Assembly (NCBI GenBank): GCA_030431375.1 | Contig: JAUIIY010000001.1 | Coordinates: 183,280-247,279 of the forward strand | Length of the DNA: 64,000 bases | Reading direction: 5' to 3' | Source: Alphaproteobacteria bacterium | GTDB lineage: Bacteria > Pseudomonadota > Alphaproteobacteria > Rickettsiales > JABSSG01 | Shown: in pieces, positions 6,280-37,934 of the stretch | How positions within the stretch are numbered: the first letter of the stretch is position 1 | Layout: every line of letters begins with the position of its first letter | Program-made: the position numbers and the translations under genes | Notes under the pieces: generated by a model | Database searches by the model: none | Seen by the model: only the letters and a program-made list of their open reading frames with translations | Told to the model about the DNA's origin: nothing

Positions 6280-6280
6280 A

Positions 6281-7852: not shown

Positions 7853-7926
7853 ACAAAACCCTTAACCCTTGTTCTTAACCAGATAAGATATTTAATATTC
7901 ACTATTTAATCAAGCATTCCTTACTG

Positions 7927-8613
7927 TCATGCGTTATTTTTAAAGTGTTTTTTAAGAAACTCCAGACCTACATCCGTTGCCTCAACTCCAATTTTATGCT
8001 CGAGTTCTTTTATCAACTTAACTTCAACGTTAATATCATGCTCCAAAAGTACTTTCTGCGCTCTAAGTGATTCTGTATAAGGTAACACTTCATCTTCGTA
8101 TCCATGAATAAGCATAATATCAGGGCGCGAAACCAGCTCAGCAGTAATAAGCTCCGGAAGAGATAATGCGCCGCTATAACCGATGACACAAGCACAACAT
8201 TTTTGCATCCTTAGACTCGTATGCAAACAGACCCTAGTCCCCTGCGAGAAACCAATCATGGCAATATCAGAAACAGTTAGGCCGTGCTCTTCTGTTTTTT
8301 TATAGATAAAATCTTCGATGATTTTTGATATATCCGCAGCGACTATTCTAATAACGTCAGGATTCCACTCAGAACCGTTATATCTCAGCCAATCATAACG
8401 TCCCTTTCCTTCATAACCCTTACACTCATGCAAACCGTTTACCGAAATAAACTTAACTTTGGGTAGGTGAGGCCGCATTTTGGCAGCTAACACATTATTC
8501 ATATAACTCGCCCTTTGCGCATAACCATGAAACAGGAAGACCAATTTTTGCGGAGGCCCTTCTTCTTCAGAATAATTCTCAATATAGCTCAGGTCGTTAT
8601 AGCTTTTTTGCAT
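7927..8613 (-). CDS. Phospholipase/carboxylesterase-family alpha/beta hydrolase
   Basis: 228 aa; GFSQG nucleophile elbow, LIHGYEDEVLP and a late His (LEHKI). Confidence 0.75.
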   Translation of the reverse strand: MQKSYNDLSYIENYSEEEGPPQKLVFLFHGYAQRASYMNNVLAAKMRPHLPKVKFISVNGLHECKGYEGKGRYDWLRYNGSEWNPDVIRIVAADISKIIEDFIYKKTEEHGLTVSDIAMIGFSQGTRVCLHTSLRMQKCCACVIGYSGALSLPELITAELVSRPDIMLIHGYEDEVLPYTESLRAQKVLLEHDINVEVKLIKELEHKIGVEATDVGLEFLKKHFKNNA

Positions 8614-13267: not shown

Positions 13268-13313
13268 TGGCGCAACCGGCAGGATTCGAACCTGCGACCC
13301 CAAGATTAGGAAT
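13268..13313 (-). repeat. Distal att repeat: exact copy of the 3' 46 nt of tRNA-Arg(CCT)
   Basis: tggcgcaaccggcaggattcgaacctgcgaccccaagattaggaat is identical to 30691-30736, checked base by base. The tRNA 5' half is absent here. Confidence 0.9.
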
Positions 13314-13453
13314 GTCAGGCGAGAAAATTACTGATATTTTATCTATATCTATAATCCTTTATCAGTCTTGCATTTTCCATTTCAAAGCATATATTACATT
13401 TTATGAAAATCAACCTAATTTAATCTAATTTGTATAACATACGTAGAACATAA

Positions 13454-14602
13454 ATGACAAAAAAAATTAATTTCACTCAAACTTTACTTAGCACTTTTCC
13501 TCCTCCTAAAAAAGGTACAAGAACTTACTATTATGATTCAAAAGTACCAGGTCTAGGCATAATGATATTTCCATCTGGAACAAAAACCTTTTTTCTTTAT
13601 AAACGCATTCATGACAAACCTGTAAAAGTAAAGCTTGGCAGATTTCAAGAAATCAGTGTTGAGCAGGCTAGAAATTTAGCTTTTAGAAATCTAAATGATA
13701 TTGCCAATGGGATAGATCCAAACGAGGAAAAGAAGAAACTTAGAAATCAGTCAACTTTCAAAGAATTGGCAGAGCGTTTTATTAATGAATATTCTAAGCA
13801 TAGAAAAAAATCTTGGAAGAACGACTTGGGATATTATACAAATCATCTAAAATTACTTGATAGAAAAAATCTTTCCAGCATAACCCCAACATTTTTGGAA
13901 AAGCTCCACAACAATATCAAGACAGATAAAGGTCTTTATGCAGCAAACCGTGTACTTGCATTATTAAAAACTATGTTTAATAAAGCTATCGATTGGGGAT
14001 ATAGTGGCAGCAACCCAACCTCTAAAATTAAAAAATTTGCTGAGAAAACTAGAGATAGAGCGATACAACCTCATGAATTAAAAAAATTTTTTGAATCTTT
14101 AAAACGTGAGAGCAACATTTTTTTCAAAGCATATATTTATATGAGCCTTTTAACTGGGGCTAGGAGGCAAAATGTTCTATCTATGCGTTGGCAAGACATC
14201 AATTTTGGTGATTGCGAATGGATTATCAAGGATACAAAAAACGGAGAGCCTCATACAGTTTCTTTAGTACCACAAGCTATTGACACACTTAAGGAACTTG
14301 AAAAATATTCAGGCTGTGAATGGGTATTCCCAAGTCACACAAGTAAATCAGGGCATTTAGAGGAGCCAAAAAAGGCATGGAAAAGATTGCTGGAAAGAGC
14401 TGACATCTCTGACTTACGTATCCACGATTTACGCAGAACTATGGCCAGCTGGCAAGTACGAACTGGTGCTAATAGCTTTATTATCAGTAAAACTCTGGGA
14501 CACAAAACTCAACAAGCCACAGCGATTTATGCCAGGGTTAGTAGAGATGTTGCTCGAGAGTCTATGGAAAATGCAGTGAATGCAATGTTTAAATATAACT
14601 AA
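13454..14602 (+). CDS. int: Tyrosine recombinase / P4-type phage integrase
   Basis: 382 aa. N-terminal arm-binding-type region (YYYDSKVPGLGIMIFPSGTKTFFLYKR) and catalytic residues in LTGARRQN, HDLRRT and LGHKTQQATAIYARV. Confidence 0.9.
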   Translation: MTKKINFTQTLLSTFPPPKKGTRTYYYDSKVPGLGIMIFPSGTKTFFLYKRIHDKPVKVKLGRFQEISVEQARNLAFRNLNDIANGIDPNEEKKKLRNQSTFKELAERFINEYSKHRKKSWKNDLGYYTNHLKLLDRKNLSSITPTFLEKLHNNIKTDKGLYAANRVLALLKTMFNKAIDWGYSGSNPTSKIKKFAEKTRDRAIQPHELKKFFESLKRESNIFFKAYIYMSLLTGARRQNVLSMRWQDINFGDCEWIIKDTKNGEPHTVSLVPQAIDTLKELEKYSGCEWVFPSHTSKSGHLEEPKKAWKRLLERADISDLRIHDLRRTMASWQVRTGANSFIISKTLGHKTQQATAIYARVSRDVARESMENAVNAMFKYN

Positions 14603-14817
14603 CAGTTTCCAGAAGTTAATTTCAATATATAACCGCTCTTAAGAACCTTATGAAAAAATTCACATTTTGATCTTACTGACCTTACCCCCGAAATTATGAG
14701 TCGAAGTTAGGAGACATTTCTAAAATAAATTACCTCAAACACACCCTGGATGCAATGTCCCAAATAAGAATTGTACGGGTTCAATACATAGTCTCATTTC
14801 TTGATTAAATAAACTTA

Positions 14818-15858
14818 CTAAACTGTTTCTTTAATTAAACTAACTGTATAGTTGATATCTTCAGCGTTAATATCTAGGTGAGTAATGGCCCTTATTTTGT
14901 CATTAATTATTCCCAACCTTACATTATATTTACTCAAACTTTTAAGAAGCCCTTCATTATTTGTTTTAGCATTATTATTTAAAGAGAAATATATAATATT
15001 AGTTTTGAACTGGGTTTTATCTATATCAATTTGAGGGATTTCATATAATAACTCGGCAAATAGTTTTGCCATTTTATGATCACCTTTTAGTCTAGACACA
15101 TTATTTTCTAGTCCATACAAACATGCAGCTGCAATAATACCAGCTTGGTGCATTCCGCCGCCTAATTGAAATTTATAGTACCAAGCCTCCTCAATAAAGC
15201 TTTTACTGCCTAAAAGGGCTGCTCCAATGGGTGCCCCCAAGCCTTTCGCGAAATCAATATAAACAGAATCAAAATACTGACAATATTCTTTAGGCGAAAT
15301 ATTAGTTTCAATAGACGCATTGAATAACCTAGCTCCATCCATGTGCAACCCAACTCCAAGCCGATCACATAGAGAGTGGATCCTTTTGATATTCTCGACT
15401 GGCCATATCGCTCCACCTCCAAAATTAGTTGTTTGTTCTATTGAAACGACCCTTGGACGTGGTATATTCCTTTTTTTTGGGGAGGTTAGTATGGTGTATA
15501 TATCTTCTACATCAAAAACCCCGTTCACTCCATTTATAGTATTTACAGAAGCGCCTACAACCCCTGGGATTAAGCCGGATTGAGTATTTAGTGGATGTGC
15601 AGTTTTATCAAGGATAATACAATCTCCAGGTCTCTTAATCAACGTTTTAAAGGCTATCAAATTAGCCATTGTGCCCGAAGGAAGAAAAATACCATCTTCT
15701 TTTCCAAGCAACTCACAGCAAGTTTCGATTAGTTTATTTACAGTTGGGTCTTCACCGGCCACTTCGTTCCCCACTTCTGCTGCAAACATAGCTTGTCGCA
15801 TTCCGTAGGAAACATTAGTGTTAGTATCACTAAAAAAATCAATAAATTTATTTTTCAT
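14818..15858 (-). CDS. Threonine-aldolase-family PLP enzyme (Beta_elim_lyase), paralog 1
   Basis: 346 aa; FFSDTNT, VAGEDPTVNKL, PSGTMANL, HMDGARLFNA and DFAKGLGAPIG (PLP Lys context). Confidence 0.8.
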   Translation of the reverse strand: MKNKFIDFFSDTNTNVSYGMRQAMFAAEVGNEVAGEDPTVNKLIETCCELLGKEDGIFLPSGTMANLIAFKTLIKRPGDCIILDKTAHPLNTQSGLIPGVVGASVNTINGVNGVFDVEDIYTILTSPKKRNIPRPRVVSIEQTTNFGGGAIWPVENIKRIHSLCDRLGVGLHMDGARLFNASIETNISPKEYCQYFDSVYIDFAKGLGAPIGAALLGSKSFIEEAWYYKFQLGGGMHQAGIIAAACLYGLENNVSRLKGDHKMAKLFAELLYEIPQIDIDKTQFKTNIIYFSLNNNAKTNNEGLLKSLSKYNVRLGIINDKIRAITHLDINAEDINYTVSLIKETV

Positions 15859-16906
15859 CTAAAATTTCCTCTATTACGTCTTGCAGTATATCAGATGCAA
15901 TGTGAACATCTTCTTCGTTAACATCCAAACAAACCACAGCCCTAATTTGATAATCGAGCCAAGGAAATAACAACAGACCCCTTGACTCGCATCTAGTAAG
16001 AAAATCTTCACTTGAAATCCCTAGCCTTGTGATATCAAATCCGACTATATTAGTTTCAACTTTATTGATGATTTTTATCAATGGGAGGTTTGATATTTTT
16101 TCTTCTAGCTTTTTTGCTAGATTATTATCAATTTTGAGTCTTTCTAAGTGGTTTTCTAACGCATATTTTGAAGCCCTTGCGTTGAAGCCAATTTGATGAT
16201 ACCCACTTCCCAACCAAACTAAAAAACGTTGAGCTTTTTCTATAGTTTCTTTGCTTCCTAATAAAACAGAACCAAATGGAGCTCCTAAACCTTTAGAAGT
16301 GCAAAAACTTAATGTATCAGAATATTTAGCATATTCTTTTAATGAAATTTTGGTTTCTACATGAGCATTAAATATCCGCGCACCATCCAAATGGAGTTTA
16401 ATCCCCTCATTTTTTAGAAAGGCATATAATTCTTTCTGTACTTCAAATGGGAATATTCTCCCCTGCCGACTATTTATACTATTCTCTATACTTACCAATT
16501 TAACTTGTGAGAAAAGCTTATATCTTTGTTTTGTACCTATGGCATTAACTATATCTTCTATCCTTAAAATACCATCTTCTGTGTTGACAGTATTCACCAC
16601 AACATTACAAATCCTTGCCATTGCACCACTGTCAAAAAAATTAACATGGTACCCATATTCTGTTACTACCTCATCACCAGGGGAGGTTTGAGATAAAAAC
16701 GCAAGCCTATTGGCAAGCATTCCGCTTGTAGTATATAAGGCGTCTTCAACCTCAAACAGCTCCTTGCAATACTCAATAAGTTTTAGATATTCTATATCCT
16801 CACCATAGGCATAGTCACCAACTTGTGCTTGCATCATATCATTAACAAGCTTTTTAGAGGGTCTACTTGTAGTGTCACTTCGCAAATCTATAAATTTTTT
16901 ATTCAT
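15848..16906 (-). CDS. Threonine-aldolase-family PLP enzyme (Beta_elim_lyase), paralog 2
   Basis: 352 aa; DLRSDTTSRPS, YGEDIEYLKL, HLDGARIFNA and CTSKGLGAPFGS, closely paralleling E. coli LtaE motifs. The start abuts the exporter stop. Confidence 0.85.
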   Translation of the reverse strand: MNKKFIDLRSDTTSRPSKKLVNDMMQAQVGDYAYGEDIEYLKLIEYCKELFEVEDALYTTSGMLANRLAFLSQTSPGDEVVTEYGYHVNFFDSGAMARICNVVVNTVNTEDGILRIEDIVNAIGTKQRYKLFSQVKLVSIENSINSRQGRIFPFEVQKELYAFLKNEGIKLHLDGARIFNAHVETKISLKEYAKYSDTLSFCTSKGLGAPFGSVLLGSKETIEKAQRFLVWLGSGYHQIGFNARASKYALENHLERLKIDNNLAKKLEEKISNLPLIKIINKVETNIVGFDITRLGISSEDFLTRCESRGLLLFPWLDYQIRAVVCLDVNEEDVHIASDILQDVIEEILDEK

Positions 16907-18574
16907 TCAAACATTAACAAATTCTTTATAATACTTATTTCTATATATACTCTCTGTTTTACTGTCACCGGTAATTTTTCCGTTTTCCACAACTATTGTT
17001 CTGGTCATTAGCTTTAGCAATGCTGGGTTATGTGTAATCAGAATAAGATTGTTAATTTTCGGATTAGCAATAATGTTTGCTACTATTTTCTTTGCTGTCA
17101 CTGGGTCTATAAAAGAGGTCGGTTCATCTAAAATAAGCAATTTCACATCGTGGTATAATGCTCTCGCTATAAGGAGTCTTTGTTTTTGTCCAACAGATAA
17201 ATTTTTTACATCAAGGGTGTCTATGAAATCATCACAAAAACTATCCATAACCGCCCTCTCAAATCTACTTTTGTTAAATTGAGACCCATAAATTATATTT
17301 TCTTTGGCCGATCTATCAAATAAATAAGGCTCTTGTTGTATATAGAGTATGTTCTTGTTGTAATTCCCAATCAAAGATGAGTTATTGTTTATTCTTATCT
17401 GTCCATCATCTGGTTTTAGAAAGCCAACTATAAGTTTTGCAATTGTGGTTTTCCCAGAGCCTGAAGGGCCTATCATTCCAACTAACTCCCCTCTTTGAAA
17501 CTTCAAATTTATATTATTAATGATTTTTTTACCATCTGGATTAAAAGATACCTCCAACAATTCTAAGTTTCTCACTTCTTCTACAAAAATATTGTTATGA
17601 TTCTTTACAGAGTCTTCAAGAGCCTGTGTTCTTACTTGATTCAGCTCAATAATAAACCCCATATCTTGATATAACTCTACTAAATGCAGACAAAACCTCC
17701 AAACATCCCTTCTATATATTACTGCTGAACCAAGAATAAAAAAGAACTCTCCCGTTGTAATCGTATGTTCATCCAATAAGCAAAGTGAATAATATATTAA
17801 GCCTCCAAAGAAAATAATTGAGGCAATACTTCTACCCAAATCTACAAAAAACAATCCCCACTCAAGACTTCTTTTTGTATTAACTTGATTATCAATATCT
17901 GCACAATATTTATTGTACTCGTACAGCTCTCTTTTTAAAATTTTGACACAAATGTAGTTTTTCAATACATCATTTAGTTTCCATATTAGTTTATTAAAGT
18001 TTACTGCATGTTTGGTAGATAAATTCACAATATAACCTACAGGAATTAAGCTGATGATTATCATTGCGGTTATCCATACTAAAAAATAATATGCTAACAA
18101 TTTTGATGAAAAGCTGATGATAATTACTGTAGCGATAAAGCCAAAGCTCACCGCCAGAACCCCATAGAAAATAAGTTTGAGAAAATTTTCAATTGTATTG
18201 TGGATATTTACAATTTTGCTAGAGGTGGAACTTGAATCATTTTTTATATGGAAATGAACTGAAACATATAAAATTTCTTTTAATAATTGCTTCTGAATAT
18301 TAGAGATATGAGTTGGTAGTAAATTGATTAATAGAATGTTGGTGAGTTTTATCAATAGTTCAACTATAAAAAAAATACCCACTATTATCAGCGCAGTTTT
18401 GGAGACAGAGTTTGCAAGTGCAATACCTGCATCTATTTGTAACCTAATTAAATAAAGGACTATAGTTTCTGCGGAGGTCCAAGTTAATATGAATATTACA
18501 GATATAGCCCACCATTTCCATGATTTCTGAAAGTCTAAGATTATACTATGTTTTAACTCTTTAATTAAAATCAT
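16907..18574 (-). CDS. ABC exporter, fused permease + ATPase
   Basis: 555 aa; about 300 aa with 6 TM, then Walker A GPSGSGKTT, signature LSVGQKQRLLIARAL and Walker B LLILDEPTS. No peptidase domain. Confidence 0.85.
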   Translation of the reverse strand: MILIKELKHSIILDFQKSWKWWAISVIFILTWTSAETIVLYLIRLQIDAGIALANSVSKTALIIVGIFFIVELLIKLTNILLINLLPTHISNIQKQLLKEILYVSVHFHIKNDSSSTSSKIVNIHNTIENFLKLIFYGVLAVSFGFIATVIIISFSSKLLAYYFLVWITAMIIISLIPVGYIVNLSTKHAVNFNKLIWKLNDVLKNYICVKILKRELYEYNKYCADIDNQVNTKRSLEWGLFFVDLGRSIASIIFFGGLIYYSLCLLDEHTITTGEFFFILGSAVIYRRDVWRFCLHLVELYQDMGFIIELNQVRTQALEDSVKNHNNIFVEEVRNLELLEVSFNPDGKKIINNINLKFQRGELVGMIGPSGSGKTTIAKLIVGFLKPDDGQIRINNNSSLIGNYNKNILYIQQEPYLFDRSAKENIIYGSQFNKSRFERAVMDSFCDDFIDTLDVKNLSVGQKQRLLIARALYHDVKLLILDEPTSFIDPVTAKKIVANIIANPKINNLILITHNPALLKLMTRTIVVENGKITGDSKTESIYRNKYYKEFVNV

Positions 18575-18610
18575 TTAAATATTTGACAAAGATACTATTA
18601 CTAGTTAACA

Positions 18611-19621
18611 ATGATATTTGATAATGTCCATAAAAAGTTTATGAGAGTCTTTGTAAGCGGAACGCTTGGTCTTGTTGGGAGAGCTTTAGTTGATTACTTA
18701 AAGGAAAGAAGGATTTCTTGCGTCACTGCTGATATCAGGTCTCCTATAGGGCAATCGGATCATATCAACATATGCGAAAAGGAAAAACTTCAAGCCGTTA
18801 TAAGTAATTGCGATGGAGTTATACACTTAGCAGCGGTGTCACGAATTGCTTGGGGAGAGCAGGCTCCTAAGGTTTGTGACATGATAAATATAATGGGCAC
18901 AAAAAACATTCTAGATGCTTGTATAAATGCCCCAAAAAAACCTTGGCTGGTCTTTGCAAGCAGTCGTGAAGTATACGGTCAACAAGAAACCTTTCCAATT
19001 AAAGAGGAGTGCACTTTCAACCCTAGAAATGTGTATGCAAAATCAAAGCTTGCTGCCGAAAAACTTGTTGAAGAAGCTTCTAATAATGGTCTTAGGGCTT
19101 TTATTGCAAGATTCTCAAACGTATATGGTGGTATGAATGACCATCGTGACAGAGTGGTGCCAGCCTTTTGTATAAATGCCATTAATAATGATCCTTTAAG
19201 GATAGATGGTGCTGATTGTATATATGACTTTACTCATATTAACGATGTGGTAGAGGGAATATTTAAAATTATTTCATTTATCACTTTCGAAAGATATTCA
19301 TATATTCCAAAAGTTCACTTTACAACAGGAAAACCTACTTCGCTTTTGGAGCTAGCTGAAAAGATTATAGCTTGTACCGGAAGCAATGCGCAACTTGATA
19401 TTAAAGAAGCCAGGCCTTATAGCACCCATAAATTTTATGGTGATAATACAAAAGCAAAAGAATTACTTAATTGGTCACCTCAAGTACCCATTGACGTTGG
19501 TATAAAAAAATTTATCACAGACTTGAAAACAACTAATAAAAGTCAGGCTATTTATAATAATAAATTTGTATTTGAGAATGAGAATTTTAAAAGTTATTCA
19601 TGGTTACCCTCCTCGATATAG
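18611..19621 (+). CDS. NAD-dependent epimerase/dehydratase (extended SDR)
   Basis: 336 aa; VFVSGTLGLVGRAL (GxxGxxG), SSREVYG and YAKSK (YxxxK). The likely true start is MRVFVSG at 18641. Confidence 0.85.
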   Translation: MIFDNVHKKFMRVFVSGTLGLVGRALVDYLKERRISCVTADIRSPIGQSDHINICEKEKLQAVISNCDGVIHLAAVSRIAWGEQAPKVCDMINIMGTKNILDACINAPKKPWLVFASSREVYGQQETFPIKEECTFNPRNVYAKSKLAAEKLVEEASNNGLRAFIARFSNVYGGMNDHRDRVVPAFCINAINNDPLRIDGADCIYDFTHINDVVEGIFKIISFITFERYSYIPKVHFTTGKPTSLLELAEKIIACTGSNAQLDIKEARPYSTHKFYGDNTKAKELLNWSPQVPIDVGIKKFITDLKTTNKSQAIYNNKFVFENENFKSYSWLPSSI

Positions 19622-21914
19622 CGCAGGTTCGGAGGTGTATAGCCAACATCTAGCACACGAACTTGCAAACTTTCATGACGTTCAAGTTTTTACCAGGCAA
19701 GAGAATAGTTTTATAGAAGATTATCATCTTTCTACAGAATTAGACCATTTAGACCCCAGAATTCTTATAAATATAATTAATGTTCCTAGAGTAAAATATC
19801 GAGATCAGTATATACATGCACCAGTAGAGGAATATTTTCGGAATATACTTAATAAATTTAACCCACATATAGTGCATTTCGGACACCTTAACCATTTATC
19901 TATAAACCTCCCTAAAATCGCTAAAGAGCTAGGCGTATTAACATTCATGACTTTACATGATTATTGGCTCCTCTGCCCACGTGGACAATTCGTTCAAAGG
20001 AATTCTCAATCTCCCTGGGACTTTTGCAAAGGGCAGGTAAATATCAAATGTGCAAAACAGTGCTATAGTGGGTCGTTTTCAGGGGATTCTGCTACCGAAG
20101 AAAAAGAAACTAAATTCAGAGAAAAGTGGATTGAGAATAGAATGCTTAAAGCACGAGGTGTGACAAATTACATAGATCATTTTGTAGCCCCTTCCAAATA
20201 TTTAAAAGAAAAGTTTTGTAATAGCTATAAGAAAGAAATAAACAAAAAAATCTCATTTTTAGACTATGGATTTAATCTAACTTATTTGATGGATAGAAGA
20301 AGAAACTCTGAGAAAGAATTTGTTTTTGGATATATCGGCACCCATACTCCCCAAAAAGGTATACAATTTTTACTACAGGCTTTTGATCTACTCAAAACTA
20401 AAAAAAACATAAAACTTAGGATATGGGGTTATTCTAAAGAAGATACACCTGCGCTGGAACTCATCCAACATACTTTAAAACAAAAGAATAATGTAGAGTG
20501 GAAGGAGGGATATAAAAATGAAGATATTATCGATAAGGTATTCAATAATATCGACGTTTTAATAGTGCCTTCTATTTGGGAAGAAAATTCTCCTTTAGTT
20601 ATCCACGAAGCTCAGCAAGCACGTATTCCCGTAATTACCGCCGATATTGGTGGGATGAAAGAATATGTTAAACACATGTTTAATGGATTATTGTTTAAGT
20701 TCAGAGACACAGCCGACTTATCACAAAAAATGCAAATGTTAGTTGATGATCCAACTCTTGCTATAAATCTGGGGGAAAAAGGATACTTATATAGTGTGAA
20801 CGGTAATATACCTGATATCCGAACTCATGCCAAAAAAATAGAAAAACTCTATCTAGAAACTGCTAAAAAACTTAAGAAGCTAATTCCTACTAAACCAGGA
20901 CCTTGGCGAATTACATTCGATACAAACCCTGATCATTGTAACTATAATTGTATTATGTGTGAATGCTTCTCACCATATAGTAAAACAAAAGAAGAAAGAG
21001 TAAAAGCTGGTATAAAAAAAAGGGTGATGGATATATCGGCAATCGAGAAAATACTTAGAGAATCGATCGGATCTCCATTGGAAGAAATTATTCCCTCCAC
21101 TATGGGAGAACCTCTTCTATATAAAAATTTCGAAAGAATAATTGAGCTATGTCACGCTTATAACTTAAAATTAAATCTAACAACAAATGGTTCTTTCCCG
21201 ATAAAAGGGGCTAAGAAATGGTCTGAGCTTCTTATTCCTGTTTGCTCGGATATTAAAATTTCAATCAACGGAGCATCCGAAGCTATTAACCAAAAAATAA
21301 TGGTAGGGTCGAAATGGAATGATATGCTATCTAACATTAAGACGCTGTTATCATATAGAGATAATTATCCTAAGCATAAAAATAGGTGCCGTGTTACTTT
21401 TCAAGTTACTTTTTTGGAAACTAATTCTAACGAGCTCATTAATATATTGAAATTAGCAATCTCTCTAGGGGTAGATAGAGTAAAGGGTCATCATTTATGG
21501 GCTCATTTCAAAGAGATAGAAAACTTATCGATGCGACGAAATAGCGAAGTTATTAATAAGTGGAATAAAATAGTAAGTAAACTCCACAAAGTTGCTGAAC
21601 AAAATCTTTTGCCAAACGGTAAAAAAATCAAATTGGAAAATTTTCATCCCTTGGATGAGAATGCCATCTCGGATATAGCTAAAGGTGGGGCTTGCCCTTT
21701 TTTAGGAAGAGAGGCATGGATTAGCGCTGAAGGAATTTTTAGCCCTTGTTGTGCACCAGATAAGTTAAGAAAATCACTAGGTGATTTTGGCTATATCAAC
21801 TCACAGACCATCCAAGATATATGGATGAGTGATAAATACAGACAACTCAGAAAAAACTTTAACCACCACAAGTTGTGCATATCGTGCAACATGAGAAAAC
21901 CATTATCGAGTTAA
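19566..21914 (+). CDS. Fusion protein: GT-B (GT4-like) glycosyltransferase + radical SAM/SPASM domain
   Basis: 782 aa. The N-terminal half has EENSPLVIHEAQQARIPVITADIGGMKEYV. CNYNCIMC (CX3CX2C) lies at nt 20937-20960, and the Cys-rich C-terminus reads CPF..SPCCAP..CISCN. The likely start is MRILKV at 19578. Confidence 0.8.
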   Translation: MYLRMRILKVIHGYPPRYSAGSEVYSQHLAHELANFHDVQVFTRQENSFIEDYHLSTELDHLDPRILINIINVPRVKYRDQYIHAPVEEYFRNILNKFNPHIVHFGHLNHLSINLPKIAKELGVLTFMTLHDYWLLCPRGQFVQRNSQSPWDFCKGQVNIKCAKQCYSGSFSGDSATEEKETKFREKWIENRMLKARGVTNYIDHFVAPSKYLKEKFCNSYKKEINKKISFLDYGFNLTYLMDRRRNSEKEFVFGYIGTHTPQKGIQFLLQAFDLLKTKKNIKLRIWGYSKEDTPALELIQHTLKQKNNVEWKEGYKNEDIIDKVFNNIDVLIVPSIWEENSPLVIHEAQQARIPVITADIGGMKEYVKHMFNGLLFKFRDTADLSQKMQMLVDDPTLAINLGEKGYLYSVNGNIPDIRTHAKKIEKLYLETAKKLKKLIPTKPGPWRITFDTNPDHCNYNCIMCECFSPYSKTKEERVKAGIKKRVMDISAIEKILRESIGSPLEEIIPSTMGEPLLYKNFERIIELCHAYNLKLNLTTNGSFPIKGAKKWSELLIPVCSDIKISINGASEAINQKIMVGSKWNDMLSNIKTLLSYRDNYPKHKNRCRVTFQVTFLETNSNELINILKLAISLGVDRVKGHHLWAHFKEIENLSMRRNSEVINKWNKIVSKLHKVAEQNLLPNGKKIKLENFHPLDENAISDIAKGGACPFLGREAWISAEGIFSPCCAPDKLRKSLGDFGYINSQTIQDIWMSDKYRQLRKNFNHHKLCISCNMRKPLSS

Positions 21915-21917
21915 AGA

Positions 21918-23504: not shown

Positions 23505-24486
23505 GATGCAGCAGTTTAAAGAACAAGGATTTACTGTATTTCGGAACTTAATTGACGAATCACATGTTGATAGCCTCAAGAGTGAAGTGATTAAAAAGAT
23601 TTACGTTTATGCTGATAAGTTGGAGGTCAACTTCTCGAAATATACTTTTTGTACAGGTAGATGGTTGCTAAATGATAACTCTATAGGACCTATTGAAGCT
23701 ATAGAAAAGAAACTTTCTGACATAATTGCAAACGAATTAGGAACGCAGATAAGCATAAAAAAGAGAAATATCACTTGTAAAAACAAGTTTATCACTAATG
23801 AAGTACCTCTACACCAAGACATCTCATATTCACCGTCAGATCCATATGATTTTACTACTTGGATTGCTTTGAATGATGTACCATTGGGCTCAGGAGAATT
23901 AATATTCGTGCCAACAAGTCAAAATTTTAATATAGAACCAGCGATAGATTTTTGGAGTCCGGATTTTCATGATAAAAATAAAGATAAATTCAAAAATAGC
24001 ATAGTTAATATCCATTTGCGAAAAGGAGACGTAGTAATGTTTGATTCGAGATTATGGCATGGAAGTAACAAAAATCTTAATCAGCAAGATAGATATGCAT
24101 ATGTGGTTAGATGGAAATATGAAGATACAAGAACACCTGATCTTGTAATACCTAACCCTATTCCTTCTGAGTTCGGAATGTGGACTTGTTATACGGAAAC
24201 AAAAAAAATTCTTTCTCAAATTCAAAACAAAGCTTCTACAGATCTAAATAACTTGATAACTGGAGCAATATCACATTTAGACACGACGAAAAACATGCAG
24301 TTCGATAAAACAAAAGCAATTATTGACCTCAAAAACCTTGCAGTTCTTCACAACGCTGCCAATACCCAAAATGCAGGAGATTTATGTGGCATCATATATA
24401 AAAACCTTTGGTATTCTCTCCTAAGGTGGGTCTGTTCAGATAAATGTAATGGGATGGACTCCTCGGATATTCAGAGTAAGATCTGA
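23497..24486 (+). CDS. Phytanoyl-CoA dioxygenase (PhyH)-family Fe(II)/2-oxoglutarate oxygenase
   Basis: 329 aa; PLHQDISY (HxD), WIALNDV, GDVVMFDSRLWHGSNKN (distal His). The start overlaps the upstream stop (ATGAATGA). Confidence 0.8.
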   Translation: MNEMQQFKEQGFTVFRNLIDESHVDSLKSEVIKKIYVYADKLEVNFSKYTFCTGRWLLNDNSIGPIEAIEKKLSDIIANELGTQISIKKRNITCKNKFITNEVPLHQDISYSPSDPYDFTTWIALNDVPLGSGELIFVPTSQNFNIEPAIDFWSPDFHDKNKDKFKNSIVNIHLRKGDVVMFDSRLWHGSNKNLNQQDRYAYVVRWKYEDTRTPDLVIPNPIPSEFGMWTCYTETKKILSQIQNKASTDLNNLITGAISHLDTTKNMQFDKTKAIIDLKNLAVLHNAANTQNAGDLCGIIYKNLWYSLLRWVCSDKCNGMDSSDIQSKI

Positions 24487-24938
24487 GGAGTCCATCCCAT
24501 TACAGTTTTCAGAATAGTCCCATATTTCCAAATATCAAACTGTCCTTTCTTAAACATCCTCATTACCTCAAATCCCTTAATTGTAGCAGATGCTGTCCTA
24601 AAGCCCTTGAATCCTAATGTTGGTTTGATTAAACATTTTAGTTTCCAATGATCAGATTCTATTATGTTATTCAAATATTTTGATCTTTCGATGTTGCAAG
24701 CTGTTAGGGCAATCTCCAGATGTTTTGAGATCGGCCATCGCTCTGCATAAGTATGATTCTGATCTGTATTGATTGTTGCTGGTTGAGAATATCTGGATAG
24801 TTATTTTAGAGCTTTCTTCAAGAATTTCTTAGCTGATTGACCGTTACAGTATTTAGATAAATAGAAATCTATTGTATCTCCGTGTTTATCTACCGCTCTA
24901 TATAAATAAACCCATTTACCTTTTACTTCTATAAAGTG
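24471..24938 (-). pseudogene. IS6-family transposase remnant (N-terminally truncated, one in-frame stop)
   Basis: Manual single-frame translation: HFIEVKGKWVYLYRAVDKHGDTIDFYLSKYCNGQSAKKFLKKALK*LSRYSQPATINTDQNHTYAE...NNIIESDHWKLK...FKKGQFDIW. The stop is at 24801-24803. The DDE N-terminal part is missing. Confidence 0.75.
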
Positions 24939-24967
24939 TCAGTAACTATTTCTAAATCATTAGAAAC

Positions 24968-26335
24968 TCATTGTTCACATTCGTTCAAAGAGGCTCCATC
25001 TTCACCTATACAAAACATATCAATCTTAGTGTCATTGCAATCTGGTATACCTGATGAAAATTTAACTTGAGATATTACAGGGCTGACGTGTGCATTCCAG
25101 TATGTAATTAGCGGGCTTAAGAGCTCTATGGCAGCAGGTGAGATGTCTTTGGTATGTAGCTCGGCAAGACGAGCTATTACTTCAGCTTCAGCATTCATAT
25201 CGGGATAAAAATATGCCTCAATTAACCTATCTAGAACCAATAATAATGAGTTATCTAACTTCATATTGGCTGCTAAAGTGAAGTAATATTTTTCTAGATA
25301 TGCTTTTTTACCCAAGAAGTTATTTTCTTGTATTTGAATGTCTTCTGGAGGAGGAAATAGTTTAAGGCAATCAGCAATAAAACCATGGTCATGTTGTCTT
25401 GAAGGGTAAAGATATAAGGGTAAGTATGATTTAATGGTTAGGCACCCCATAGTCTTTTGGTTATCCGCTGTTTGGTCCAATTGACAATCTAATATTAGTT
25501 GAGAAGTTAAGCTAGGGGAATGAGTCTTGACCACTACTTGCAACAATATGTCTTGGAATATCCTAGTGTAATCCAGCTCTGCTTTCCTATTTGTGGATGA
25601 ATAGGGCTTTGCATCATTATGAAAGAGAAATGACTGTACATAATGTCCTATTTCATGGATAAATTGTCCTTCTTCAAAATTATTATATGCATATAAGGGC
25701 ATATATATAGCTTGCTGTCCTCCAACAACTTTATGCACAGCTTCACGTTGGGCATGCTCAACATGTGGCAATATAATTTTAGTATTTTGATGAGTTAACA
25801 AGGCTAGAGATGTAGCTTCTAAGGTTTCAGTGATAACGTTATTGCTTGTTGATCCAAAAGATCTATATATTCCAAATGTTTTATCTTTCTGAGTGCTGGG
25901 GTATATATATGTATAACTGCCAAGTATAGCGGTGCTGTTAAGACATAGAGGCTTTGTGGCTAACATTGGGCCAGCAGCAAGTGCTTTTATTATAGCATAT
26001 CCCTGTTCAGCTGCTGTTGCTGATATTATATTGCTTAATTCTCCCAAGTGAGAAACATATTTAGAAATATTACCTTGTTGTGGGTGAGAAAAAGTTAAAT
26101 CTGATGCAGAGAATGTGGTGCCATAAAGTACTAGATTTTTAGCAATACTCAAAGCATCTCCTTGATAAGCAAGAGCCAGCAGATTAGTCTGAAATTCAGA
26201 AAAATGCGGATCAGCTGTTTTTGTGTTGAAAATATAATTTGCTGTTTGATCAGCTCCAAGTGTAATCGCATAATACACCGCTGCAGTCAGAGGCAAATTA
26301 TCCAATTGGGTCTTTAGATCTTTGTTAAATACCAT
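24968..26335 (-). CDS. Hypothetical protein with HExxH motif (possible zinc metallopeptidase-like effector)
   Basis: 455-aa uninterrupted ORF. HEIGH lies at residues 227-231 (nt 25643-25657), with a Glu about 22 aa downstream. No signal peptide or TM seen and no family recognised. Confidence 0.55.
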   Translation of the reverse strand: MVFNKDLKTQLDNLPLTAAVYYAITLGADQTANYIFNTKTADPHFSEFQTNLLALAYQGDALSIAKNLVLYGTTFSASDLTFSHPQQGNISKYVSHLGELSNIISATAAEQGYAIIKALAAGPMLATKPLCLNSTAILGSYTYIYPSTQKDKTFGIYRSFGSTSNNVITETLEATSLALLTHQNTKIILPHVEHAQREAVHKVVGGQQAIYMPLYAYNNFEEGQFIHEIGHYVQSFLFHNDAKPYSSTNRKAELDYTRIFQDILLQVVVKTHSPSLTSQLILDCQLDQTADNQKTMGCLTIKSYLPLYLYPSRQHDHGFIADCLKLFPPPEDIQIQENNFLGKKAYLEKYYFTLAANMKLDNSLLLVLDRLIEAYFYPDMNAEAEVIARLAELHTKDISPAAIELLSPLITYWNAHVSPVISQVKFSSGIPDCNDTKIDMFCIGEDGASLNECEQ

Positions 26336-26340
26336 TGATT

Positions 26341-26607
26341 TTATTCTGCATCATAGGAAAAAAATTCTTTACTAAAATCACCAAGTAGTTGATCAAGATT
26401 TTTACCATGTAAAGGATGCTCATTTGGTGATATCTGTTCTATTTGTTTGCGGCCATCATTTGTCATAGTTGTTTGATTCCCCAACCCTTTAACAGCATTA
26501 TGGATGACAAGCTCTGAGTATTGAATGCTGGAATGAGATGACCTGATTCCAGCTGCATCCATTTGTAGTTGTTCTAAAAGATCTTTTTCTGTGATTGGTT
26601 CTGCCAT
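26341..26607 (-). CDS. Hypothetical small protein (88 aa), upstream partner of the HExxH protein
   Basis: The ORF ends 5 nt before the 455-aa ORF start on the same strand. Acidic/polar composition; no family recognised. Confidence 0.45.
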   Translation of the reverse strand: MAEPITEKDLLEQLQMDAAGIRSSHSSIQYSELVIHNAVKGLGNQTTMTNDGRKQIEQISPNEHPLHGKNLDQLLGDFSKEFFSYDAE

Positions 26608-26909
26608 AATTTCCTCATTAGTAGTTTAAGTAAACTATATAACGAAAGTTAAATTTTATCAACCTTAGTTTCTGGGATTGTAGAAATTCAATAGAAATGA
26701 TACCGTCTTGAGAGTCAACAGGTGTTTTTTATCATTTTAATATTTGGATTAAAAGCTGTCTTATACGTAAATACAAGTGAATATTTAGTAAATTTAACTT
26801 GAATAAGTTCAGATAGAAGTGAGACGAATTATATAAAAAAAATATGGCATAAAAAGAGAAAGGCCGCCAAGATAAATTTGTTTTAATAACTTAACCATGG
26901 GGCCTTACC

Positions 26910-27642
26910 ATGCAAATATTTGGATTGCACAAGAACATATATAAAATAGCCAATTATAGTTTACAACAAGAAATCACAGATGAATCGATAGCATTACGCC
27001 AGAAGCTGTTTAGTGATTGGGAATTACTAAAGTCGCGAGGAGTGTCAATAACGGAGATATCCAGGGTCACCGGGATAAGCAGAGCAACATATTATCGTCG
27101 GAAGAAGTTAGTTCAGCTATACGGATTGAAAGGGTTTCTAAGCAGGTCAAAGAGGCCACATAATGTAAGACAGAGTAAGATATCCAAATTAGTAATAGAT
27201 TTGGTTTTAAAGCTGCGTATTGGGAATCCCACATATGGTAAATCTAAGCTAGCAGTAATATTAAAAAAAGATCATGCAGTATCTATATCAGAGAGCAGTG
27301 TTGGTAGGATATTAAGCAGTTTAATAAAAGCTGGTAAAATAAGCAAATATACTAGATCCCGTTATAGCAAGAAGAGGCGTAAGTTCAAGTCTCATGCGCA
27401 GAAATGGCAATATGGCATGAGAGCTACATCTCCAGGAGAATTAGTGCAAATAGATCATATGAGTGTGACTAAGAATATATTCTCTTTTAAGCATTTTCAA
27501 GCATGGGATCCAATAACTAAAGTAATAATAGCGGATATTAGCTCTAATGCTAAAAGCCTAACGGCAGCAAAATTTTTAAGGAAGCTGATTAAAGAGCTGC
27601 CATTTAAGTTAAAATCAATTCAGGTTGATGGGGGCAGCGAGT
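26910..27642 (+). pseudogene. IS481-family transposase, disrupted by IS3-family insertion
   Basis: HTH (ISRVTGISRATYYRRKK), an rve-type core with VQIDHM and IQVDGGSE. The frame is then broken where the IS3-type inverted repeat begins at 27643. Confidence 0.7.
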
Positions 27643-27717
27643 TGGTCTTCTCCCGAAAAAAAGGACAGGATAAAGTGAGAAAAATCTCTAAAATAACAAT
27701 AAAAAAGAGGTTTTAAG

Positions 27718-27984
27718 ATGAAGAAGACAAAATTCACAGAAGAGCAGATATCCCTGGCATTACACAAAGTAGATACTGGCCTGCCAGCAGAAGAAGTATG
27801 TCGAAAGCTGGGCATAGGTTACTCAACTTTTTATAGATGGAGACAAAAATATGGTGGATTACTTCCATCAGAAGTTAGAAAACCGAAACAATTAGAAGAT
27901 GAGAATAAGCAGCTCAAGAAGCTAGTTGCAGATTTGAGTTTGGATAAAATGATGTTGCAGGATGTATTGGGAAAAAAGGCTTGA
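27718..27984 (+). CDS. IS3-family transposase OrfA (HTH)
   Basis: 88 aa; MKKTKFTEEQISLALHKVDTGLPAEEVCRKLGIGYSTFYRWRQKYGG plus a leucine-zipper-like tail, the typical IS407-group OrfA. Confidence 0.8.
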   Translation: MKKTKFTEEQISLALHKVDTGLPAEEVCRKLGIGYSTFYRWRQKYGGLLPSEVRKPKQLEDENKQLKKLVADLSLDKMMLQDVLGKKA

Positions 27985-28660
27985 TTCAAACGATGCAGAT
28001 GAAATATATGGCTAGTATAAAAAGAATATGTACAGCATTTAAATTTGTCAGATCCAGCTTTTATTATAAGAAAGTATTCAATCAGCAGACTATCCTCATA
28101 AGGCAGCGAATTAAAGATATAGCCAATAGTAGGTTTAGATATGGTTACAGAAGGATACATACGATGTTAAATAGAGAAGGTTTTAAAGTTAATTTAAAGA
28201 AAGTGCACCGAATTTATAGGGAAGAGAACCTTCAGTTGAAGTAAAAGGTTCCTAAAAGAAGAATACAAGCCAAAAGCAGACAAGAACCTACAGCCATCCA
28301 TTCTAAGAATGATTGTTGGAGTATGGATTTTGTTAGTGACAATTTATTTACAGGAGGAAAATTAAAGATATTAACCATAGTAGATGCTCATACAAGGGAA
28401 AGCCCCTTAACTGGAGTAGGATTTAAATATACAGGGTATGATGTTACTACCAGCCTAGATGAAGCAATATCTAGGCATGGTAAACCTACCGACAATGCAT
28501 TTATAGAAAGTTTTAACAGTAGATAGACAAGAATGTTTAAATCAGCATTGTTTCTTGAATTTGGGAGATGCTAGAGCTAAGATAGAGGAATGGCGAGAGG
28601 ACTACAACCAAAATAGGCCTCATAGCTCTTTAGGTTATCTAACTCCTAGTGAGTATGCCA
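27981..28660 (+). pseudogene. IS3-family transposase OrfB, fragmented
   Basis: Pieces in different frames: RYGYRRIHTMLNREGFKVNLKKVHRIYREENLQL; WSMDFVSD...ILTIVDAHTRE...GKPTDNAFIESFNSR (internal deletion, stop); ...RAKIEEWREDYNQNRPHSSLGYLTPSEYA. Confidence 0.75.
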
Positions 28661-28742
28661 TGTCGTGTACTGACCATTTGGTCAAAACATGAAAAAATTG
28701 AGATTTTCTCATTTAACCTGTCCAACTTCTGGGGGCTCTCCA

Positions 28743-28985
28743 TTATTGCAGATTTTAGCCTTACGCAACTGTCCAGTTTTTTGGTACCACTTCAGATAGA
28801 ACACACCGATCATTTTACTAATAACACCCTCCAAAAATTATGCAACTCTTATTGATGTTGCCATACCAGCTATATATTTGGAAGAATTATGCAATATATT
28901 GATCCTGAAGATCCAGAATGCCTATAAGAAAGTTTCCATGGAAAGTTTAGAGATGAGTGTTTAATTCAATATTGGTTTAGCATTC
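28743..28985. mobile_element. IS debris: solo IS3-type terminal repeat plus a second orfB fragment
   Basis: 28743-28789 (attgcagattttagcc..ctgtccagttttttggtacca) resembles the preceding IS right end. 28928-28981 translates to ESFHGKFRDECLIQYWFS, a conserved IS3 OrfB C-terminal block. Confidence 0.5.
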
Positions 28986-29161
28986 ACCTGCCACTAAAAC
29001 AACAAATGTTAGTGAAACTGAGTATATAAATTTATCAATTATCACTCAGGCGCCGTTAAGGCTTTTTGGACAAAATTTGAATTCTTTAAGTTAATAAAAG
29101 AATGAATTTTTAATGAGTGAGTAGCTACGCTCCTCTAGGTAGAATTACTAGTAACTCTACT

Positions 29162-29732
29162 CACACCATACGCACGGGATTTCCTCTAGCTTCTAATCTT
29201 TATGGAGTATGATTTATACTGTATCCGTTAGCTGTACGGATATTTCACTCAGTACTATACGGACCAATACCGTATTTGGAGTGTAAGTCTTATTTACACT
29301 GAGTTTAGTTATCCGTATATCTACCGCCCACTAGCCCCAACAATTTGAACAATGCTTACTTTAATATTTTTTATATCAAGATCTGCCCTCTAAAAAATAC
29401 AAAGGCTTTGTTATATACAAATCTTGCTTCAAAGTAACCAGACCAATCATGCTTCTTTATTAAAAGTATTATAGCAAACCTAGATATTTTTATTACACAG
29501 CTTTAAAAGAATTATTTATGACATAAGACTGTAAAAACTTTACCCCTATAAGAAAATAGAAGTTTTTGTATTACATTGTATATATGTTCAGAAGTTTTAT
29601 CAGCTCTTATTTACATTGTGTCGTATATCATTGTATATACAAAACGTGCTTACACGTATTGCAGTGTATATACAAACCTGAGCCCTTTCTCCACCTAGAA
29701 TACAGCAAAAGTAATCCCGTGCGTATGGTGTG
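29162..29732. repeat. 20-bp perfect inverted repeats bounding a 571-bp AT-rich non-coding segment
   Basis: cacaccatacgcacgggatt (29162-29181) is the exact reverse complement of aatcccgtgcgtatggtgtg (29713-29732). Confidence 0.8.
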
Positions 29733-30690
29733 CGCGTGCGTGCGTGCGACCCGTAGGGCCGCTATTCATCGTTGCAGGAATTGCAGACTTTATGAGGTCC
29801 AAACTTATAGGGTTAAGAGAAGGAGAGACATGAGAACCTAGGTTCTCATGGAAAGAGTTCTAAATTGCAATAGATGCAACCCGGTATTCTACTGCCGGTA
29901 TGCTACCTGAGCATGCGAGGTTAGTAACAGTCTGGTATGGAGCCTCAGGAAGAATGTAACCTGAGACTCTTAAGAGTCTGGAGCGCGAGCCGTGAGGTAA
30001 GTGCAACTCTACAAGCATTGTGCGAACAAGGTGCTAGCATAAGTGGTATGGCAAATGTAAGTGAATCTTCGTATAACGTACCGTGACATTGATTGCTTGT
30101 AACCCCTGTTACTTCCTGGACTAAAAAATGTTTATTACCACTTTGTTAAATACCAAACCTTTATAATTTTCTCCCACACAAATTGAGCCTGACATTGATG
30201 TCAAAATATCCTTGGTTGTTCTTATATAAGCTACTATCTACATGGGTCTTGCTCCTTGAGCTACTTGTATTGCAACCAACTGACTATGGTTGTTTTTTAC
30301 AAAACCATTATACAGGCAAGACTCACCGCTTTTAACGTTTTTCAATACCTGAAGCAGGGACTTATTTTGATATATCCTATGAACTGGATGCTGTTATATA
30401 AAATCGTATATAATGTTCAAAAAAATAACAGTAATGTGTAGCTCTCAAATTAAAATCAAATATTTATCAAATTATACTTAACCAAAAATAATTCTAGCTC
30501 CTAAATATAATATAGTAATATCATTTAAATCTGACACCTGATGTTTTACCGCCTCAATCACACAGAGGTTTAAAAATTCCGAACTGCAAAAGCCAAAAAT
30601 TGTGCTACAAAAGCAACAAAGTTTCTGTAGAACATATGTAGAACGCACCCTTTTTCAAAAACCCCTCTTTCATTAAGACCCTTTACTATG

Positions 30691-30767
30691 GTGGCGCAAC
30701 CGGCAGGATTCGAACCTGCGACCCCAAGATTAGGAATCTTGTGCTCTATCCTGCTGAGCTACGGCTG
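30691..30767 (-). tRNA. tRNA-Arg (anticodon CCT)
   Basis: Minus-strand 77 nt: GCAGCCG-TA-GCTC..GAGC-A-CAAGA-TTCCTAA-TCTTG-GGGTC-GCAGG-TTCGAAT-CCTGC-CGGTTGC-G-CCA. The cloverleaf folds by hand and CCA is encoded. Confidence 0.9.
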
Positions 30768-30893
30768 CATTTTTCAAAATTTTATCACCACACATATTTG
30801 TAGTTCTGACAACCATTAAAGGTTTAATACAAAAGACATAAAAATTCAAAGATTTTTCAAAATAAATATCCCTTGAGAAATAACTATCGACTT

Positions 30894-37242: not shown

Positions 37243-37264
37243 TTATTTGGCAAAAATATTTTAA

Positions 37265-37294
37265 GGTAGTTGGGTTACCTCAACTACCTTTTTT
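37265..37294 (+). terminator. Rho-independent terminator (paralogous to 35600-35630)
   Basis: ggtagttg-ggttacct-caactacc followed by a T-run. Confidence 0.65.
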
Positions 37295-37389
37295 ATTAAC
37301 ATCATCATCTTGATTTTTCATTGTAAAACTGGCTAAGTTATTGTAAGTTACCGGATAGTTAACTATTCAATAAACAAAAAATATCTCAT

Positions 37390-37932: not shown

Positions 37933-37934
37933 AC

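Follow-up and report, generated by a model that had tools for sequence, protein, structure and literature searches.

Organization of the tRNA-Arg(CCT) locus

The DNA described here is a 64,000-bp stretch of contig JAUIIY010000001.1 (assembly GCA_030431375.1) from an alphaproteobacterium of the order Rickettsiales, and the whole stretch is referred to below as the window. Positions 13268–30737 of the window very probably constitute one integrative genomic island of 17.4 kb, which occupies the 3′ part of a tRNA-Arg(CCT) gene and carries a tyrosine integrase gene (int), seven cargo genes resembling part of the Undecim Cluster (UC) of Wolbachia phage WO, and a partly decayed segment on the side of the tRNA gene. 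The two ends of the island are defined by the following features:

13268–13313, minus strand: displaced 3′ half of tRNA-Arg(CCT), from the anticodon loop to CCA, forming the distal att core copy (exact 46-mer)
13432–13453, plus strand: int-proximal arm with two tandem 11-bp repeats, GTATAACATAC GTAGAACATAA, putative arm-type sites, abutting the int ATG
13454–14602, plus strand: intact tyrosine integrase of 382 aa, with Arm-DNA-bind_3, SAM-like and catalytic domains (Pfam)
30627–30648, plus strand: tRNA-proximal arm with two tandem 11-bp repeats, GTAGAACATAT GTAGAACGCAC, separated by 43 bp from the core
30692–30768, minus strand: intact tRNA-Arg(CCT) (ARAGORN; Rfam tRNA, 69.1 bits)

The 46-mer TGGCGCAACCGGCAGGATTCGAACCTGCGACCCCAAGATTAGGAAT, whose outer ends read TGGCGCAACC...TTAGGAAT, is present in the window in exactly two copies, at 13268–13313 and 30692–30737, with their starts 17,424 bp apart. 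The proximal copy is the 3′ 46 nt of the intact gene and, read in the tRNA sense, begins with the final base of the anticodon stem's 5′ strand, takes in the anticodon loop and ends with the encoded CCA; at the distal copy, ARAGORN called no tRNA. No match was found in any of 100 shuffles, even with up to 3 mismatches tolerated. The exact repetition of the tRNA 3′ part noted in the initial annotation was therefore confirmed, apart from the right copy, which had been placed one base too low (30691–30736), while its caveat that the 46-mer might turn out to be a dispersed repeat was not borne out. A search of the window at word size 7 gave no further att copy, not even in degenerate form, and the 46-mer is the one repeat common to the island and the remaining window. 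The perfection of the repeat says little about its age, since it spans only 46 bases and one copy belongs to a selected tRNA; the corresponding repeats of related islands, 45–49 bp long, are likewise perfect.

This arrangement corresponds to what the Islander procedure (PMC4383910) takes as an island: an intact tRNA gene and its cognate fragment lie on the same (minus) strand, the tRNA gene's 3′ end at 30692 points to lower coordinates, with the fragment 17.4 kb away in that direction, and between the two there is an integrase gene (13454–14602; Phage_integrase, E = 3.9e-25).

A related locus without the island

The island is flanked by conserved genes (to its left for a response regulator and a protein of 558 aa, to its right for UvrB), in agreement with their earlier description as core genes. 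Comparison with relatives for an empty tRNA-Arg site had been suggested as a check, and such a site is present in GCA_040221415.1 (locus L084), the UvrB of which is 76–77% identical to that of the window. The gene order in L084 is porin, Ala-racemase-like protein, glutaredoxin, UvrB, PAP2, tRNA-Arg(CCT), a 210-aa M24-like protein, response regulator, a 562-aa protein, methyltransferase and hydrolase. Both flanks of the window can be recognized in it, and no island genes are found at its tRNA-Arg(CCT) locus, so that the segment is absent from the locus in a related genome, as is expected of an island. The exact repeat, the intact integrase and the related locus without the island together bear out the view that the segment was inserted by an integrase into the 3′ part of the tRNA gene. 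No conspecific genome came to light: exact-protein look-ups of the integrase and the response regulator led only to the sequencing run ERR3428547, the look-up of UvrB returned no record, and scans of metagenomes yielded no match to the exact junction between the left flank and the core and no relative for the 558-aa flank protein.

The integrase and its position

The integrase, which starts 140 bp from the distal repeat copy, has the P4-like (DUF4102) domain plan (PF13356, E = 5e-14; PF00589, E = 3.9e-25) and retains all residues that are invariant across an alignment of 30 homologues, including the catalytic set R-K-H-R-H-Y (R237, K262, H324, R327, H350 and Y359). Its homologues, 49–71% identical, occur in Rickettsiales, Holosporales and other Alphaproteobacteria, and the best match among species-representative genomes is 64–65% identical. 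The NCBIfam P4-type model PRK09692 gives 51.4 bits against a cut-off of 434, and of the two E. coli integrases compared, IntF (26% identity, 100 bits, E = 1e-27) is closer than IntA (24%, 71 bits). The designation as a P4-type integrase can be kept on account of the domain architecture, though at only 24–26% identity to IntA and IntF.

Canonical P4-type islands, such as those at leuX-intB and ssrA-intA (CP4-57), have the same plan of Arm-DNA-bind_3/DUF4102 and catalytic domains, and their insertion, likewise into the 3′ part of a gene for tRNA or tmRNA, regenerates that gene. In E. coli K-12 leuX is followed 260 bp on by the co-oriented intB, and ssrA by intA; here int lies beside the displaced fragment. 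The canonical P4 layout, with int directly downstream of the intact tRNA gene and co-oriented with it, is not found at our locus, since int is 16 kb away from that gene, next to the fragment and divergent from it. It was this placement that the initial annotation regarded as atypical and suggestive of decay. The Islander (PMC4383910) and TIGER2 papers do not address integrase position. The layout was compared across 80 loci that encode relatives of the integrase with 41–65% identity, with one genome per species.

Of the 80 loci, 72 have the 3′ half of a tRNA, from the anticodon loop through CCA, 140–260 bp upstream of int and always in inverse orientation to it. The fragments derive from at least 12 tRNAs (Met in 32 cases, Thr in 10, Asn and Lys in 8 each, Arg in 7, Val in 3, and others), and the T-arm motif was seen in the opposite orientation in one case among the relatives. 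At least 11 relatives have the whole island within the fetched DNA, and each of these combines a fragment of 45–49 bp next to int with an intact tRNA gene 7–10 kb downstream, the second copy of the repeat overlapping the intact gene, which lies on the same strand as the fragment; in two further relatives the downstream copy falls at the very edge of the fetched DNA, where a tRNA is not callable. The nearest integrases also adjoin Arg fragments, with the anticodon CCT in L090 (71% identical) and in L003 and L005 (64–65%), and TCT in L091 (59%).

An intact tRNA upstream of int was called by ARAGORN in only 2 of the 80 relatives. These are L027 (9239–9312, Val-TAC) and L043 (9818–9891, Gly-CCC), in which a complete tRNA gene is inverse to int; either the block of identity covers the whole tRNA in these two loci, or the island DNA mimics its 5′ half.

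A precedent outside the clade is provided by CP4-6 of E. coli K-12. Its target gene thrW is intact at 262,871, and 34 kb from it, on the opposite strand, is intF, which like int here is transcribed into the island; moreover, a thrW fragment, again from the anticodon loop to CCA, lies in inverse orientation about 110 bp upstream of intF, like the fragment in the window. CP4-6 differs in its gammaproteobacterial host, its tRNA-Thr target, its 34-kb length, its unrelated cargo and its integrase, the 466-aa IntF with 26% protein identity. Panis et al. (2010, PMC2951348) assigned ptwF-intF to a rare “OD” shape among 1273 tRNA-integrase pairs, of which 736 had both genes on the same strand with the tRNA first, the commonest shape, and 438 were convergent. 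Our locus has the OD-shape layout, with an inverse tRNA 3′ fragment 140 bp upstream of int and the intact tRNA gene at the far end. Since int lies beside the fragment in 72 of the 80 relatives and in CP4-6, its position is not evidence of decay, of a composite element or of rearrangement. It is a property of the attP design and the norm for this integrase clade, and the integrase cannot be called atypically placed.

Arm repeats at both ends of the island

At either end the island has tandem 11-bp repeats containing the motif GTAGAAC, which occurs three times on the two strands of the 64-kb window, always within the two arms; the island side of the intact tRNA gene reads TGTAGAACATAT-GTAGAAC. 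Upstream of int, tandem repeats with a period of 10–12 bp, nearly always 11, are present in 73 of the 80 relatives, and the motif goes with the subclade of the integrase: the closest relatives have GTAGAAC, Rhodobacterales and others GTAGCAC, the group of Finniella and Paracaedibacter GTATACC, and still others GCGGCAC. The tandem TGTAGAACATAnGTAGAAC itself is found upstream of int in L003, L005, L006, L011, L045 and L091, which are among the closest relatives. Wherever the island of a relative lies within the fetched DNA, its own tandem motif is present in both arms and in the equivalent place. The GTAGAAC repeats are probable candidates for the sites bound by the N-terminal arm-binding domain of the integrase.

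The presence of the same clade-specific repeats in both arms shows that the element encoding this integrase truly ends on the side of the tRNA gene. Together with the lack of a third att copy, it leaves the idea of a tandem array or of a composite of two elements, the latter raised in the initial annotation, without support. A tandem array was considered and rejected, as no third att copy was found at word size 7 and no other repeat is common to the island and the rest of the window.

In L006 and L091, there is an extra inverted pair of the arm motif (GTTCTACnnnnGTTCTAC) about 40–60 bp upstream of the direct GTAGAAC pair; no inverted copy of the motif is present anywhere in the window.

Undecim Cluster genes as cargo

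Adjacent to int is a block of seven intact cargo genes (14818–24486), all of which match UC2–UC8 of phage WO and of the Rickettsia plasmid pREIS2. Identities to phage WO refer to record MN180251.1, and those to the pREIS2 genes are close to the WO values. The genes are as follows:

14818–15858, minus strand: pyridoxal phosphate (PLP)-dependent aldolase, UC8-like (WD0618 equivalent); scored by NCBIfam as a GntG-family aldolase (300.9 bits; cut-off 230); identity 59% with UC8 of phage WO and 60% with its pREIS2 counterpart
15848–16906, minus strand: PLP-dependent aldolase, UC7-like; NCBIfam GntG family, 253 bits, above the cut-off; 56–57% identical to the WO and pREIS2 genes
16907–18574, minus strand: ATP-binding cassette (ABC) exporter with fused membrane and ATPase parts, in the UC6 position (Pfam ABC_membrane and ABC_tran); 25% identical to WO UC6 and 34% to its L091 counterpart
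18611–19621, plus strand: NAD-dependent epimerase/dehydratase of the short-chain dehydrogenase/reductase type, UC2-like (Pfam); 42–45% identical to WO UC2
19578–21914, plus strand: GT4 glycosyltransferase-radical SAM/SPASM fusion, UC3-like (Pfam); the mechanical open reading frame (ORF) begins at 19566
21918–23504, plus strand: WG-repeat and O-methyltransferase-like protein, UC4-like (Pfam); 38–40% identical to WO UC4
23497–24486, plus strand: PhyH-type 2-oxoglutarate/Fe(II) dioxygenase, UC5-like (Pfam); 36% identical to WO UC5

The diagnostic member of the set is the UC3-like protein, which unites GT4, Radical_SAM and SPASM domains in one chain. The called gene encodes 778 aa and is 56% identical over 99% of its length to the phage WO protein, a level at which it is also matched in Rickettsia plasmids; homologues of 49–63% identity are found in Rickettsia (including plasmids), Wolbachia wFol, Cardinium, Phycorickettsia, Midichloriaceae, plasmids of Arsenophonus and a myxobacterium. 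According to Bordenstein & Bordenstein (2022, PMC9203015), the Undecim Cluster comprises WD0611–WD0621 of Wolbachia phage WO, is described as a highly expressed gene set, and is reported to have been laterally transferred to plasmid pREIS2, Cardinium and Phycorickettsia. The island has UC2–UC8, the same seven-gene subset as the pREIS2 copy, and not the full contiguous and colinear UC1–UC11; of the further genes compared, UC1, UC9 and UC10, no homologue is present in the window. Protein identity to the cluster is 25–59%. The setting differs as well. The genes are here part of a tRNA-targeting tyrosine-integrase island and not of a serine-recombinase phage, a plasmid or a transposase-flanked region; nor do they lie in a WO-like island or a eukaryotic association module of phage WO, as the ORFs of the island include no phage WO core genes and no serine recombinase. 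The cargo looks, from its domains, like a module for making and exporting a modified glycan or small molecule; the published annotation of the cluster suggests glycan or lipopolysaccharide modification, methylation and export.

The block UC6–UC8, colinear with the remainder in WO and pREIS2, is inverted relative to UC2–UC5 in the island, giving two divergent operons. Since the same divergent order is found in three unrelated contigs, L091, L096 and L097, it must have been inherited and did not arise by local rearrangement, contrary to the internal rearrangement that had been proposed.

The aminoglycoside cluster of R. buchneri was ruled out as the identity of the cargo, since it consists of different genes (btrR, kanC, PIG-L). 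The gap between the divergent start codons of the ABC exporter and the epimerase genes (18575–18610) measures 36 bp, which leaves scant room for two promoters. In a metagenomic alphaproteobacterium (L085, 9070–14924, and L086), a UC2–UC5 core without the ABC exporter or the aldolases sits among the chromosomal genes tol-pal, queC and aroA, and the seven-gene module may be built of two separable blocks. Three plasmids of about 20 kb from Arsenophonus symbionts of louse flies (CP132902.1, CP132904.1 and CP132908.1) carry a UC3 fusion of 53% identity and an adjoining epimerase gene; they would add gammaproteobacterial insect symbionts to the Undecim Cluster hosts named in the portions of PMC9203015 that we consulted.

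The tRNA-proximal third

Between the cargo and the tRNA gene, the island contains these features:

24427–24522, no strand assigned: strong palindrome/hairpin at the junction of cargo and insertion sequence (IS), arms of 45 nt, with 24 bp perfectly paired in the stem (RNA folding: −61.4 kcal/mol, z = −9.7)
24471–24674, minus strand: fragment from the C-terminal part of a transposase of the IS6/IS240 family (Pfam DDE_Tnp_IS240, E = 3.9e-10, matching positions 96–139 of the 139 in the profile only)
24968–26335, minus strand: intact 455-aa ORF with a HEIGH (HExxH-type) motif; no Pfam or NCBIfam match
26341–26607, minus strand: intact 88-aa ORF; no Pfam or NCBIfam match
26910–27716, plus strand: truncated transposase-like ORF with Pfam HTH_32, HTH_28 and HTH_29 only, stopping where IS3 starts
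27718–28692, plus strand: degenerate, frameshifted IS3-family element, OrfA followed by OrfB broken into several frames (HTH_Tnp_1, HTH_21; pieces of rve, rve_3 and rve_2 in separate short ORFs)
29880–30033, plus strand: group II intron fragment, region of domains I–IV (Rfam RF02012, 84.7 bits; gathering score 34)

The third closes with non-coding DNA of about 2 kb, which terminates in the arm repeats. No rve domain was detected by Pfam in the ORF at 26910–27716. Near the intron fragment we found neither a reverse transcriptase ORF nor domains V/VI, and no other intron family reached E <= 1 in the interval 24400–30900. The earlier description of the 6 kb nearest the tRNA as IS debris and non-coding DNA is largely right, except that two intact ORFs, of 455 and 88 aa, are also present. 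Likewise, decay within the island is real, as had been supposed, but int, the two arms and the seven cargo genes have all escaped it, and the integrase position that had been cited in its favor is no evidence for it.

The 455-aa protein belongs to a family with 37 representatives among 1.84 billion proteins, and a 22%-identical homologue is encoded directly after the integrase of the L007 island; the protein may be an island-borne metalloprotease-like effector. The palindrome at 24427–24522 extends across the UC5/PhyH stop codon and the terminus of the IS6/IS240 fragment and could be a bidirectional terminator or the remnant of a rearrangement junction. Just upstream of the intron fragment, in non-coding DNA, a perfect 20-nt inverted repeat (29162–29181 and 29713–29732, 531 nt apart) may mark the ends of a small non-autonomous element resembling a miniature inverted-repeat transposable element.

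Formation of the island and alternative explanations

As an island in tRNA-Arg(CCT) the locus is complete in structure; it belongs to an alphaproteobacterial branch of the P4-like integrases, has the IntF/CP4-6-type layout and carries UC2–UC8 as cargo. It would have formed when its own tyrosine integrase recombined an attP of about 250 bp with the tRNA-Arg(CCT) gene. In attP as reconstructed from the two ends, 43 bp separate one set of arm repeats from the 46-bp core, and 118 bp separate the core from the second set, which is followed by the int start codon. Recombination inside the 46-bp block would have rebuilt a complete tRNA gene at one junction and left the displaced 3′ half at the other, with the crossover presumably in the anticodon-loop region. 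For tRNA-targeting integrases, crossover in this region is established. Because the core of this clade is inverse upstream of int, integration always leaves int beside the displaced fragment and reading into the island. The IS elements and the group II intron probably inserted later into the tRNA-proximal third and then decayed.

The integrase also probably represses its own gene, as one pair of arm repeats abuts the int start codon. Such self-repression was shown experimentally for integrases with a promoter overlapping the att region, among them IntF, the gene of which is negatively autoregulated (PMC2951348). A promoter scan of the DNA upstream of int gave one match, on the wrong strand, and fewer matches than in shuffled sequence.

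Several observations weigh against this reconstruction. Among the island ORFs scanned there is no excisionase or recombination directionality factor (HTH_17, AlpA-like), while some relatives carry an HTH_17 or HTH_3 ORF. The assignment of the arm sites draws solely on their conservation and position. The exporter in the UC6 position, with 25% identity to the Wolbachia gene, may be a non-orthologue. The comparator L084 is distant, at the genus level or more, and has the extra M24-like gene between the tRNA and the response regulator. Base composition, which is not obligatory for islands, hardly sets the segment apart: the GC content is 0.344 in the island and 0.355 in the flanks, and the tetranucleotide distance is raised just slightly. 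The comparison of k-mer and GC profiles proposed in the initial annotation consequently did little to separate the island from its surroundings, although a weak contrast is expected if donor and host are both AT-rich Rickettsiales.

One could suppose instead that decay, a composite origin or internal rearrangement of the element, for example a tandem fusion of two islands or an inversion that moved int, accounts for a misplaced integrase. The IS6, IS3 and transposase-like fragments and the truncated group II intron do fill much of the tRNA-proximal 6 kb, and the cargo is one inversion away from the order in phage WO and pREIS2. Yet int lies beside the fragment in the same 72 of 80 relatives, in every relative in which both ends were found, and in CP4-6; both arms bear the same clade-specific repeats, no third att copy exists even in degenerate form, and the divergent cargo order recurs in L091, L096 and L097, which makes a misplaced integrase very unlikely. 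We give still less credence, next to none, to the notion that the two copies of the 46-mer reflect chance, a dispersed repeat or faulty assembly and have nothing to do with integration. Both Logan short-read contigs of ERR3428547 (n = 2) stop within the 46-bp repeat, so that none of them spans the distal junction, but such breaks are typical of a de Bruijn assembler at a true repeat. Furthermore, there are exactly two copies where none is expected by chance, the repeat coincides precisely with the 3′ part of the tRNA, is oriented in the same way and falls on the correct side, the gene of an integrase whose clade targets tRNAs lies 140 bp away, and the intervening genes are absent in a relative.

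A different history is suggested by L091 (Logan SRR33465477), which contains the same seven-gene module. On one side of the module are genes for TraK, TraE and TraL, a helix-turn-helix (HTH) regulator and a tlc transporter; on its other side a trypsin-like gene is followed by the 59%-identical integrase at the end of the contig, and upstream of this integrase are an inverse tRNA-Arg(TCT) fragment and TGTAGAACATATGTAGAAC repeats. Through L091, both the cargo and the clade of the integrase are connected with a RAGE-like integrative conjugative element (ICE). RAGE resembles the window in its Rickettsiales host and tRNA-linked integration, and RAGE cargo is known to be shared among intracellular bacteria (PMC6300072); it differs in having transfer genes, none of which are present in the island. 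Thus, the island might be the stump of a larger RAGE-like ICE, which kept int, the att arms and the Undecim cargo while its F-type transfer genes were lost by IS-mediated deletion. The module order in L091, between the Tra/HTH/tlc genes and the integrase, and its GTAGAAC arms are the same, and the part of the island that matches the position of the L091 transfer genes consists of IS debris and non-coding DNA. No F-type type IV secretion system (tra) or relaxase Pfam domains occur among the island ORFs, however, and a blastx comparison of 24.4–30.7 kb with 8,900 ORFs of the fetched loci revealed IS-like scrap and the 455-aa family but no Tra pseudogene, a weak test in that the set holds few Tra proteins. 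In addition, other clade members are islands of 7–10 kb without transfer genes, and the orientation of the module relative to int is opposite in L091 and in the window. We regard descent from an ICE as plausible but less likely than not.

A bolder proposal, for which we would claim somewhat less, is that the island is a still-functional vehicle of a widespread and undescribed P4-like branch, characterized by a mirror-image attP (core inverted upstream of int, tandem 11-bp arms over the int start) and including the conjugative L091, and that elements of this branch are the carriers, hitherto missing, by which the Undecim Cluster spreads among Rickettsiales and into other intracellular symbionts by way of tRNA-Arg sites. 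Movement of the cluster between Wolbachia phage WO, a Rickettsia plasmid, Cardinium and Phycorickettsia was already known; to its carriers the locus adds a tyrosine-integrase tRNA island and, via L091, a conjugative relative. The points of interest are modest, namely the clade as a vehicle of the Undecim Cluster and the distal integrase as a clade-wide rule. An integrase beside a displaced tRNA fragment is, in this family, a specific attP design and no sign of decay, and surveys that are restricted to integrases adjoining annotated tRNAs, or that distrust distal integrases, will miss or misjudge the clade. The island may still be mobile, and the reconstructed attP of about 250 bp with its candidate arm sites offers a concrete substrate for testing mobility, which is rare for unculturable Rickettsiales.

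Chromosomal surroundings

UvrB homologues place the organism among uncharacterized Rickettsiales, with best matches of 80% and 77%, while UvrB of Jidaibacter, Ac37b and Holosporaceae is about 66% identical. In the locus with the 80%-identical UvrB (L083), tRNA-Arg(CCT) at 12028–12104 is on the strand opposite uvrB, and the genes for the response regulator and a 564-aa protein (5811–7962) lie on the other side of uvrB. Since the tRNA is inverted relative to uvrB and the flank genes are on its other side, tRNA-Arg(CCT) is therefore a rearrangement breakpoint in the L083 lineage. The right flank of the window at 35752–46420, which includes genes for a porin, DUF3576, leucyl-tRNA synthetase, DNA polymerase III delta, prolyl-tRNA synthetase and a MacB/FtsX-type ABC system, is colinear with L084 and represents conserved core genome despite a dip in GC content to 0.30 at 40–42 kb.

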